Sequence record: PQ511147.1
Origin: Escherichia phage NHEP3
Direction: 5' to 3' (one strand)
DNA length: 44,039 nt
Every line of letters starts with the position of its first letter. The first letter of the stretch is position 1. The notes under the pieces are model-generated. The model was not told where the DNA came from. It was given only the letters and a program-made list of their open reading frames with translations, and ran no database searches. This document shows, one piece after another, positions 36,797 to 37,579 of the stretch. A program made the translations under genes and the position numbers.

Positions 36797-37579
36797 TTAA
36801 CGGCGGCGACGTTTGCGTGGCGCTTCGTCTTCGTCGTCGTCCTCATCTTCGTCATCGCGTGGCTTACGACGTTTACGAGGTTTTTCATCTTCCTCATCGT
36901 CGTCGTCATCGCGGCGCTTGGACTTTTTGGACTTGCGCGGCTTGTCGTCTTCATCATCGTCATCGCGACGTTTTGACTTTTTGGACTTGCGCGGTGCTTC
37001 ATCTTCGTCATCGTCGCCCAGGTCTTCATCGGAGCAAGAAGACCCGCCACCGCCGAAGGCTTCACCGTCATCCCGGAAGCGTAAACCCAGCAAGCCAGCG
37101 CCGAGTCCCTTGCCGTTGGTGTTGTTCCACGCCCAAATATCCAGGGACACGTTGCAATAGCAACCGGAATAGATTTCCTGGCCTTCGATCTCGTCGCCTT
37201 CTACGGTCAGACCTTGCTCGGTCTGCTTCTCGCCCAGTGACGTTTGGATGTTAGGCTGTTTGAACGATTTGGCGTTGATGTACAACATTCCTTCGAATTC
37301 TTCGGTTACTTCATCGCGCTCGTCGCCGTCGCGAACTGCACATTCCTTAGAATCCTGGGCGTAGTGGCGGTCCATCCACTTATCGGCATTCTTCTCGGAT
37401 TTCAGCTTGTCGGTGAGCACTGCGCGCGCTGCCGCTTCCACTTTGTCCACCTGCGGATCTTCTTTATCAAGAAGAATCACGGCACGGTATGCCGGTTTTT
37501 GTCCATCCTGTTTAGGGGTATCACGTTCCCAAATTTTCAGGAAACATACACGCACATTTTTCAGGTTGACTTTAGCCAT
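36797..37579 (-). CDS. putative ssDNA-binding protein with a repetitive acidic/basic C-terminal tail
   Basis: N-terminus MAKVNLKNVRVCF..., placed between the Cas4-like nuclease and the polymerase; the C-terminal about 90 aa alternate DDDDEDE and PRKSKKSKRR blocks. Confidence 0.4.
   Translation of the reverse strand: MAKVNLKNVRVCFLKIWERDTPKQDGQKPAYRAVILLDKEDPQVDKVEAAARAVLTDKLKSEKNADKWMDRHYAQDSKECAVRDGDERDEVTEEFEGMLYINAKSFKQPNIQTSLGEKQTEQGLTVEGDEIEGQEIYSGCYCNVSLDIWAWNNTNGKGLGAGLLGLRFRDDGEAFGGGGSSCSDEDLGDDDEDEAPRKSKKSKRRDDDDEDDKPRKSKKSKRRDDDDDEEDEKPRKRRKPRDDEDEDDDEDEAPRKRRRR
36820..37010 (-). repeat. tandem repeat of about 57 bp, in frame within the SSB-like gene
   Basis: Near-identical units ...ttggactttttggacttgcgcgg...tcatcgtcatcg... 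on the plus strand. Confidence 0.6.

Follow-up and report, generated by a model that had tools for sequence, protein, structure and literature searches.

The Escherichia phage NHEP3 single-stranded DNA-binding protein carries a tandemly repeated tail of alternating acidic and basic blocks

[quoted passage not shown] The acidic-hydrophobic C-terminal tip of SSBs is supposedly universal. The locus raises the questions of whether the protein is an SSB, whether its tail is maintained, and what such a tail would do in place of the tip. The gene and the parts of its product are as follows.

36797..37579, minus strand: complete coding sequence (CDS) of a Gp2.5/Enc34-type SSB, from the open reading frame (ORF) list, the sequence, PF10991, and PHROG 112
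37043..37579, minus strand: predicted OB-fold core binding single-stranded DNA (ssDNA), amino acids (aa) 1-179, from AlphaFold2, Foldseek, and sequence matches to PDB
37016..37042, minus strand: linker SSCSDEDLG, aa 180-188, between the glycine run and U1, from the sequence and a low predicted local distance difference test (pLDDT) score
36965..37015, minus strand: repeat unit U1, aa 189-205, DDDEDEAPRKSKKSKRR, from the sequence; part of a 54-bp tandem repeat
36911..36964, minus strand: repeat unit U2, aa 206-223, DDDDEDDKPRKSKKSKRR, from the sequence; 54-bp tandem repeat with U1
36857..36910, minus strand: repeat unit U3, aa 224-241, DDDDDEEDEKPRKRRKPR, from the sequence
36800..36856, minus strand: terminal repeat unit U4, aa 242-260, DDEDEDDDEDEAPRKRRRR-COOH, from the sequence; kept in every copy-number variant

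The tail starts past the motif EAFGGGG (aa 173-179, with FGGGG at aa 175-179) and contains four head-to-tail units of 17-19 aa, encoded by 51, 54, 54, and 57 bp. Each unit consists of a run of 6-11 aspartate or glutamate (D/E) residues, then x-Pro, and then a block of 7-9 residues rich in lysine and arginine (K/R). The repeat region has no hydrophobic residue. Among the 81 residues of the tail, 36 are D/E and 28 are K/R (~79% charged; net charge, -8). Charge segregation was 0.454, compared with 0.093 +/- 0.036 in 5000 shuffles (maximum, 0.249), and kappa was ~0.61. The tandem alternation described earlier is thereby confirmed, with four units and a segregation beyond all 5000 shuffles. The tandem tail stood, but not its estimated size of ~90 aa or its uniform ~57-bp period: the repeats cover 72 aa, or 81 aa with the linker, and the units range from 51 to 57 bp. 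The strand, here found to be the minus one, had been left unstated.

In the AlphaFold2 model, the pLDDT dropped to ~50-60 from aa 171 onward and was 46-61 in the tail, which had no secondary structure. As a structural and evolutionary description, the tail is very probably a disordered block polyampholyte of tandem units. At the DNA level, Tandem Repeats Finder (TRF) reported a period of 54, with 2.1 copies, 84% matches, and a score of 163. The identity between U1 and U2 was 78-80%, and that of the remaining unit pairs was 61-68%; the clear tandem repeat in the DNA is confined to U1 and U2. The PRKSKKSKRR blocks of these two units differ only synonymously.

An unstructured acidic tail with an acidic-hydrophobic or aromatic tip is not what was found. 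The four basic blocks interrupt the acidic runs, the protein ends with PRKRRRR, and a DDDIPF-like tip is absent from it, the last residues being RKRRRR. An AT-hook or SPKK-type motif was considered and rejected: there was no Pfam match at E < 0.01, and the PRK(S/R)KK blocks contain no RGRP or SPKK. PRGR occurs in some homolog tails, but this is a resemblance to the AT-hook only.

The SSB assignment, made earlier by position and N-terminal resemblance, now has a family profile, sequence matches to PDB, a predicted OB fold, and published orthologs behind it. The protein matched PF10991 (Enc34_ssDNA-bd, formerly DUF2815) over aa 3-193 with a score of 110 bits (cut-off, 26; E = 1.4e-31) and PHROG 112 (Gp2.5-like ssDNA binding and ssDNA annealing protein) at 1.8e-55. 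By sequence, aa 1-179 (the core) were enough to match PDB entries 4klk, 4jg2, and 5odj/5odk (Enc34 ORF6), with E values from 1e-11 to 1e-7; for 4klk, 4jg2, and 5odj they lay between 1e-11 and 4e-8. The AlphaFold2 model, a predicted and not an experimental structure, was built from a 55-sequence alignment and had a pLDDT of >90 over aa 1-172, with 164 residues at 90 or above. In a Foldseek search of PDB, the only significant matches were T7-type SSBs, namely, 4klk (2e-12), the ssDNA-bound Enc34 ORF6 (5odl_A; 6e-12; target-normalized TM score, 0.77), and T7 gp2.5 (1je5; 2e-6). The OB fold, proposed earlier as a check, was thus predicted with confidence, and the modeled core superimposes on Enc34 ORF6 and T7 gp2.5. 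A bacterial-type SSB was not indicated, as PF00436 gave no Pfam match and E. coli SSB (1qvc) reached only E = 1.6 in Foldseek. Of the DNA-contact residues of Enc34 ORF6, the base-stacking Trp150 is aligned with W149 and the polar Asn154 with N153. A point against the assignment is that two DNA-contact residues of Enc34 ORF6 are not conserved: Lys46 corresponds to A30 (with K28 close by) and Tyr156 to N155 (with W151 close by).

The orthologs in SECphi4 and SECphi18 have been published as "predicted SSB (Gp2.5 family)," which supports the SSB reading and means that it was already known. Expression of these orthologs triggers Retron-Eco8, and phages escaping the retron carried T56P in the OB core of the SSB or promoter mutations, those of SECphi4 lying in the intergenic region 5' of the SSB gene. 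The SECphi4 SSB was reported to bind retron msdDNA (PMC13402713). On sequence and model evidence, the gene product is almost certainly a phage replication/recombination SSB of the T7 gp2.5/Enc34 ORF6 type. By analogy with the SECphi4 ortholog (msdDNA) and Enc34 ORF6, it would bind ssDNA preferentially, and the PHROG 112 label and the adjoining PD-(D/E)XK exonuclease suggest that it may act in annealing with a 5'-3' exonuclease partner.

The window belongs to a coliphage of Dhillonvirus type. Its SSB gene was matched by 154 Dhillonvirus records at 85-97% nucleotide identity, and a protein identical to the SSB is encoded on one IMG/VR contig. As anticipated from the repeats, the tail varies in length between isolates, and cultured Dhillonviruses carry one, two, three, or four units. 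In a length survey of 60 evenly spaced records among the 154, the four-unit length (771-792 bp) was found in ~80%. The unit counts that follow were confirmed by translation. Four units are present in SECphi18, Haito_Bas83, rolling, HH3, SO-1, Gluttony, and several IMG/VR contigs. Three units resulted either from absence of the U2-type block (HK578, CHD5UKE2, Psq-1, and Envy) or from fusion of U3 and U4 at differing junctions (TheodorHerzl, BF9, and SECphi4). EP23 and P-GXEC-L2P5 have two units, and welsh has one, in a protein of 202 aa ending with ..DNDDEDEAPRKRRRR. The deletion junctions are all inside acidic runs and all in frame, and at least four independent events are needed. Small indels of 3-9 bp also lie mostly in acidic runs. 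The sequence ..DEDEAPRKRRRR was kept in every one-, two-, three-, and four-unit Dhillonvirus variant. Gain and loss of units would most simply be explained by slippage or recombination between the GAY/GAR-rich stretches of the acidic runs.

The record of P-GXEC-L2P5 (PQ843332.1) is 88.6 kb long, about twice the normal Dhillonvirus length, and at ~1175-1390, directly downstream of the gene, the 3' end of the SSB gene and the terminator region are partially duplicated. The double length and the duplicate suggest an assembly concatemer or a rearrangement.

In a codon-aware alignment of 11 four-unit orthologs, the ratio of the proportions of nonsynonymous and synonymous differences (pN/pS) was 0.10 in the tail (pS, 0.33) and 0.06 in the core (pS, 0.32). 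The charge class was kept in 12 of the 19 variable tail columns. The low pN/pS of the tail, together with the solely synonymous differences between the U1 and U2 basic blocks, indicates that, although its number of units is flexible, the tail is preserved as protein sequence. Purifying selection on it is strong, and it is not drifting.

A word-seeded homolog search returned almost only tail-bearing matches and was treated as biased, because the tail's own 5-mers seed such a search; the search was therefore repeated with the core alone. This exhaustive HMMER scan of 1.84 billion representatives gave 1976 matches at E < 1e-3, and tail statistics were taken from the 149 best core-only matches having a complete core. 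Their median length was 194 aa, and their median tail was 25 aa. No basic block was present in the tail of 132 of the 149 representatives, which mostly ended with acidic-hydrophobic tips (DDDIPY, DDIPF, EDF, DDLLG, and others), so the earlier view that the tail is atypical for SSBs is right relative to the family. At least one tail basic block was found in 16 representatives (11%). On the core tree, a rough UPGMA (unweighted pair group method with arithmetic mean) tree on Kimura distances, the trait was clustered, with 12 state changes compared with ~27 expected (minimum, 23), yet it appeared in several separate places. In clade A, around the NHEP3 protein (39-60% core identity), tails end with oligo-Arg, oligo-Lys, or a short acidic stretch. 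In the distant clade B (~30% core identity), 3-8 units precede a canonical tip (DDDDDLV or DDDDVV), and scattered singletons also bear basic blocks. Among distant homologs, word-seeded ones included, arrays of 4-8 units precede a canonical tip (DDDDLPF, DDEIPF, or DDDVA), the first two of these being like that of E. coli SSB. In all nonredundant tails, Pro stood at position +2 after the acidic run in 86% of 423 boundaries, with R/K at +3 to +6, indicating that the unit is a conserved pattern and not mere composition.

The family (PF10991-type SSB) is encoded in 812 cultured-phage records, and representatives of the main groups were compared. The Jerseyvirus and Kagunavirus SSBs (37-40% core identity to the NHEP3 protein; 208-210 aa) have one such terminal unit as their whole tail, ending with ..DDEDETPRRERRRNR and ..DDDDEKDEAPRRERRRR, respectively. 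The Cornellvirus SSB has two units and an acidic end, that of Hafnia phage TS33 has two to three units and ends with ..PPRRRRNRD, and the Scappvirus SSB has three units and an acidic end. The SSB of Xanthomonas phage Xoo-sp2 has no unit and a canonical acidic tail. This survey indicates that the tail type is lineage-wide in Dhillonvirus, Guernseyvirinae, and Scappvirus. By sequence comparison, the tail is not peculiar to NHEP3 and also turns up in other parts of the family. Of the cultured phages sampled, the array is expanded furthest in Dhillonvirus, to as many as four units.

How does this tail compare with those of known SSBs? Enc34 ORF6 of an Enterobacter/Hafnia phage (PDB 5odj, 5odk, and 5odl) resembles the NHEP3 protein in PF10991 membership, predicted fold, and replication-module setting, and in both proteins the unstructured C-terminal segment starts past an FG(G) motif. 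The Enc34 tail, however, is ~29 aa long, purely acidic (16 D/E), and ends with WDEDEV (PMC5686142), whereas the NHEP3 tail has 81 aa, four basic blocks, and an oligo-arginine end. T7 gp2.5 (1je5), the prototype T7-type SSB and annealing protein, shows the OB-fold likeness at a core identity of only ~11-14%, and both it and the SECphi4 ortholog trigger Retron-Eco8. Both T7 gp2.5 and the NHEP3 protein have a disordered charged C-terminal tail; in T7, this tail regulates how ssDNA is bound and brings in polymerase and helicase (PMC10359462). The T7 tail is acidic, with an essential terminal aromatic residue (...EADEDGDF), and its acidic stretches are separated by just one small basic patch (AKASKPR), in contrast to the four full acidic/basic units and the lack of a terminal aromatic in NHEP3.

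E. coli SSB has the same layout, with a long disordered segment behind a folded core, although the OB families differ. Its intrinsically disordered linker (IDL) is Gly/Gln/Pro rich and nearly uncharged. In distant PF10991 homologs, the acidic/basic repeats stand exactly at the place of this linker, before a DDDIPF-like tip, whereas in the Dhillonvirus SSB the acidic-hydrophobic tip is lost. The SSBs of Jerseyvirus, Kagunavirus, Cornellvirus (Guernseyvirinae), and Scappvirus share with NHEP3 the family, the DUF2800-SSB-PolA context, and the order of D/E run, x-Pro, and Arg/Lys block. Those of Cornellvirus and Scappvirus end acidic after their two to three units, in contrast to the Dhillonvirus SSBs with up to four units and a basic terminus.

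The genomic setting is that of a replication and recombination module, with the following named genes around the SSB gene.

37905..39335, minus strand: DUF2800/PD-(D/E)XK (Cas4-like) exonuclease, upstream of the SSB gene, from PF10926 (1.6e-66), PF12705, and PHROG 69 (exonuclease)
34280..36571, minus strand: family A DNA polymerase (PolA), downstream of the SSB gene, from PF00476 and PHROG 17
34002-34367, minus strand: VRR-NUC, after PolA, from the gene order in the window

The order on the minus strand is DUF2800 exonuclease, an 80-aa ORF, SSB, a 56-aa ORF, PolA, and VRR-NUC. The gene had been placed between the Cas4-like exonuclease and PolA, which is right, with one small ORF intervening on each side (80 and 56 aa). 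The proposed replication/recombination setting also holds, as the order DUF2800 exonuclease-SSB-PolA-VRR-NUC was present in the window, in distant homologs, and in cultured phages. The order DUF2800-SSB-PolA was found at distant tail-bearing metagenome homologs (L023 and L024) and in Scappvirus and the examined Guernseyvirinae (Hafnia phage TS33, Jerseyvirus, and Kagunavirus). In NCBIfam, neither the SSB nor any of three small neighboring proteins fell into a named family.

In the exonuclease, an N-terminal Cys (..WMGCPAAL..) is combined with a C-terminal C-x2-C-x5-C motif (..DACQWCRFADQCS..). This layout is the Fe-S cluster arrangement of Cas4/AddB-type PD-(D/E)XK nucleases, and the Cys arrangement of the protein at 37905-39335 is consistent with the label "Cas4-like" given earlier. 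The 56-aa ORF at 36568-36738 (minus strand) has a stop that overlaps the PolA start. A protein identical to its product is an escape locus in SECphi4/6/18 mutants, with E21fs and upstream intergenic changes (supplementary table of bioRxiv 10.1101/2022.08.27.505566); these rows adjoin the DNA-polymerase (Borvo) escapers in the same table.

A second charge-segregated protein is encoded in the same early/replication region, at ~39824-40366 (minus strand) within ORF 39824-40594 (PHROG 3127). Its center, ..EVEDDDDQDEVEDTPKTKKGAAKETKSKGKAKKEVVEDDDDDDADDVKPAKGKKAPAKGKGKK.., consists of two units of D/E run, x-Pro, and Lys-rich block, the pattern seen in the SSB tail. With a filter set at ≥12 acidic and ≥10 basic residues per 40 aa, this protein and the SSB were the only segregated-charge matches in the window; the remaining match, near 10461 on the plus strand, was a mixed-charge segment (EEVQAEIKGLK...). 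The 39824-40594 protein had no NCBIfam match, and in Pfam it matched only BUD22, far under the threshold.

The SSB CDS of 260 aa starts with ATG at 37579 (N terminus, MAKVNLKNVRV) and has its stop codon at 36797-36799. The following signals flank it.

37588..37592, minus strand: Shine-Dalgarno-like GAGGA, 8 nucleotides 5' of the SSB ATG, by direct reading of the sequence
37645..37673, minus strand: candidate sigma-70-like promoter TTGACC-17-TAGATT, 5' of the SSB gene, by consensus match only
36753..36778, minus strand: intrinsic-terminator-like hairpin GCCCGC-UUAAU-GCGGGC with a U5 run, ~20 nucleotides past the SSB stop, by sequence reading

RNA folding of the hairpin gave -24.6 kcal/mol (z = -4.6). 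A consensus terminator scan did not report the hairpin at 36753-36778, probably since its stem extends into the U run. In Shemara and Scapp, annotated terminators occupy the equivalent relative place 3' of the SSB gene. The gene thus appears to be equipped with its own candidate promoter, Shine-Dalgarno sequence, and hairpin with U5 run.

What, then, might the tail do? Our tentative proposal for its most likely role, drawn from analogy and sequence patterns, is an electrostatic, linker-like module for regulation and self-association, with the terminal acidic-Pro-oligoArg unit in place of the acidic-hydrophobic tip. The tail would stand in for two elements of canonical SSBs, the disordered linker and the acidic tip. 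By mimicking ssDNA, the acidic blocks may compete for the OB cleft, keep the SSB off double-stranded DNA (dsDNA), and speed turnover, as in T7 gp2.5 and Enc34 ORF6. Without its acidic tail, Enc34 ORF6 gains dsDNA binding (PMC5686142), and in T7 gp2.5 the acidic tail and ssDNA compete for the cleft, with the tail tuning on- and off-rates (PMC10359462). The basic blocks could neutralize the acidic ones in cis, or they could contact nucleic acid or the acidic blocks of neighboring protomers in trans. Contacts in trans would give salt-sensitive, multivalent SSB-SSB and SSB-DNA interactions, leading to cooperative coating, to annealing alongside the neighboring exonuclease, and possibly to condensation; the number of units would set the valency. 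In E. coli SSB, cooperativity and phase separation are under the control of the disordered linker (bioRxiv 10.1101/797431/PMC7584906 and PMC12143593). The invariant terminal unit may be this lineage's equivalent of the SSB C-terminal tip.

Several points weigh against this interpretation or the evidence for it. The mechanism draws on analogy and sequence patterns. Viable phages have one to four units, which implies that valency is not critical under laboratory conditions. Sensing by Retron-Eco8 does not depend on the tail, since it extends to SSBs with three and with four units, and T7 gp2.5 lacking the C-terminal tail still activates. The pN/pS values come from nonindependent pairwise sums over few sequences of extreme composition, and the roughness of the UPGMA core tree makes the number of independent tail origins uncertain.

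The main rival to the electrostatic model, which we regard as possible although somewhat unlikely, is a linear motif for partner docking. The terminal unit, duplicated internally, would bind PolA, the primase-helicase, or the DUF2800 exonuclease, the repeats would multiply or space the sites, and electrostatics would be secondary. It would account for the unchanged terminal unit across copy-number variants and for the retention of this unit as the only one in Jerseyvirus and Kagunavirus, which share the DUF2800-SSB-PolA module. The strict boundary Pro is typical of a linear motif, and canonical SSB tails recruit partners, as do the C-terminal tip of E. coli SSB (SSB-Ct) and the tail of T7 gp2.5, which binds polymerase and helicase according to PMC10359462 and to Marintcheva 2008 as cited in PMC5686142. 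However, the basic blocks (KSKKSKRR, KRRKPR, RRRRR, and AKKKK) vary more than is usual for a specific motif. In distant homologs, a canonical tip still follows the repeats as a separate element, which suggests that the repeats are not what docks there.

Near-neutral, low-complexity expansion by replication slippage, in which the internal units would be functionless and nothing but the short charged end would count, is improbable. The one to four units in viable cultured phages, the common 3-9 bp indels in acidic runs, and the related genera that manage with one unit would all fit such an expansion. The selection data disfavor it, as the tail pN/pS is near that of the core at the same synonymous divergence and the paralogous basic blocks of U1 and U2 have diverged at synonymous sites only. 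The predominance of the four-unit length in the sampled Dhillonvirus records and the recurrence of the unit pattern and of multi-unit arrays at only ~30% core identity also speak against it. The viable one-unit phage keeps this explanation alive.

It is very unlikely that the tail is an anti-defense appendage on an abundant early protein, its acidic blocks serving as a DNA mimic or decoy against host nucleases, restriction, or other defense proteins. Long D/E runs are DNA-like in charge, and SSBs are sensed by several defense systems (Retron-Eco8, Hachiman, and ShosTA), so that an arms race is plausible. Against this, the known DNA mimics are proteins that fold and present their charges in a defined geometry, and the low pN/pS of the tail is unlike that of variable arms-race surfaces. 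Retron-Eco8 escape mutations were sought in the SECphi4/18 SSB tail and none was found, all being T56P or promoter changes.

That the tail is an annotation or frame artifact, the product ending earlier or continuing in the frame at 36742-37071 (minus strand), possibly by programmed frameshifting, can be dismissed as extremely improbable: this frame is open over the whole tail and is read by database proteins P0005 and P0009 and by the records 101114B2 and Ioannina, but the repeat region has no codons with T at position 2, so that a +1 stop is impossible and the open frame is a by-product of composition, while the annotated frame is under purifying selection, the charged tail is conserved at the protein level in >100 homologs, and the frameshifted records keep the complete canonical tail in the shifted frame. 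With the canonical tail intact there and the +1 frame free of stops, the shifts point to sequencing errors or very recent lesions.

Frameshifted SSBs running into the minus-strand alternative frame are annotated in vB_EcoS-22664B1, 101114B2, and Ioannina. Spurious ORFs lie over the tail DNA at 36742-37071 on the minus strand and at 36784-37254, 36791-36976, and 36813-37160 on the plus strand, because the D/E/K/R/P/S codon composition excludes stops in most frames.

Two other repeats were observed in the window. The octamer AGCGGGAC occurs in 12 copies, all on the plus strand, compared with 1.5 expected (maximum, 4 in 100 shuffles). Five copies each lie at 15910-16086 and 43478-43579, with single copies at 13236 and 25727, and TRF reported arrays with periods of 8-16 bp at both clusters, which may be iterons or regulatory binding sites. 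A 105-bp tandem repeat at 26902-27125 (plus strand; 2.1 copies; 88% matches) has nested 42- and 63-bp periods, is rich in motifs of the AAGACGGAGACGCAG type, and is presumably a coding repeat within a structural gene.

The gene and its family are already known, and near-identical proteins are in GenBank. A literature search of open-access papers and preprints (polyampholyte SSB and DUF2815) found no description of this tail, which is not proof of absence. The papers on the orthologs and the family leave the tail out or describe acidic tails only, and the figure of the Retron-Eco8 paper omits the "flexible C-terminal residues" of the SSB; the tail architecture and its departure from the acidic tip thus appear to be undescribed. 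A bolder and doubtful proposal is that the acidic-x-Pro-oligo-basic unit is a distinct, unrecognized class of SSB C-terminal module, which would replace the acidic-hydrophobic tip in many siphophages of enterobacteria, a large group comprising Dhillonvirus, Guernseyvirinae, and Scappvirus, and would form a charge-patterned linker elsewhere in PF10991. Its amplification would tune multivalent self-association, in condensate-like replication foci or annealing, and recruitment via the basic terminus, with the ~39824-40366 protein as a possible coassembling partner.

Hundreds of sequenced coliphage and Salmonella phage SSBs end in oligo-arginine after a D/E run, a selected and phylogenetically widespread exception to the acidic tip. 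If the tail were merely a tolerated low-complexity sequence, the protein would be an ordinary known SSB with a curious appendix. The SSB is in any case of practical interest as a Retron-Eco8 trigger, and SECphi and BASEL phages with this protein are widely used in laboratories. If the tail is functional, otherwise near-identical and genetically tractable phages offer a natural series of one to four units, suited to the study of charge patterning and valency in cooperativity, ssDNA/dsDNA discrimination, annealing, and condensation. A functional tail would also imply a mode of replisome recruitment unlike the acidic-tip paradigm.

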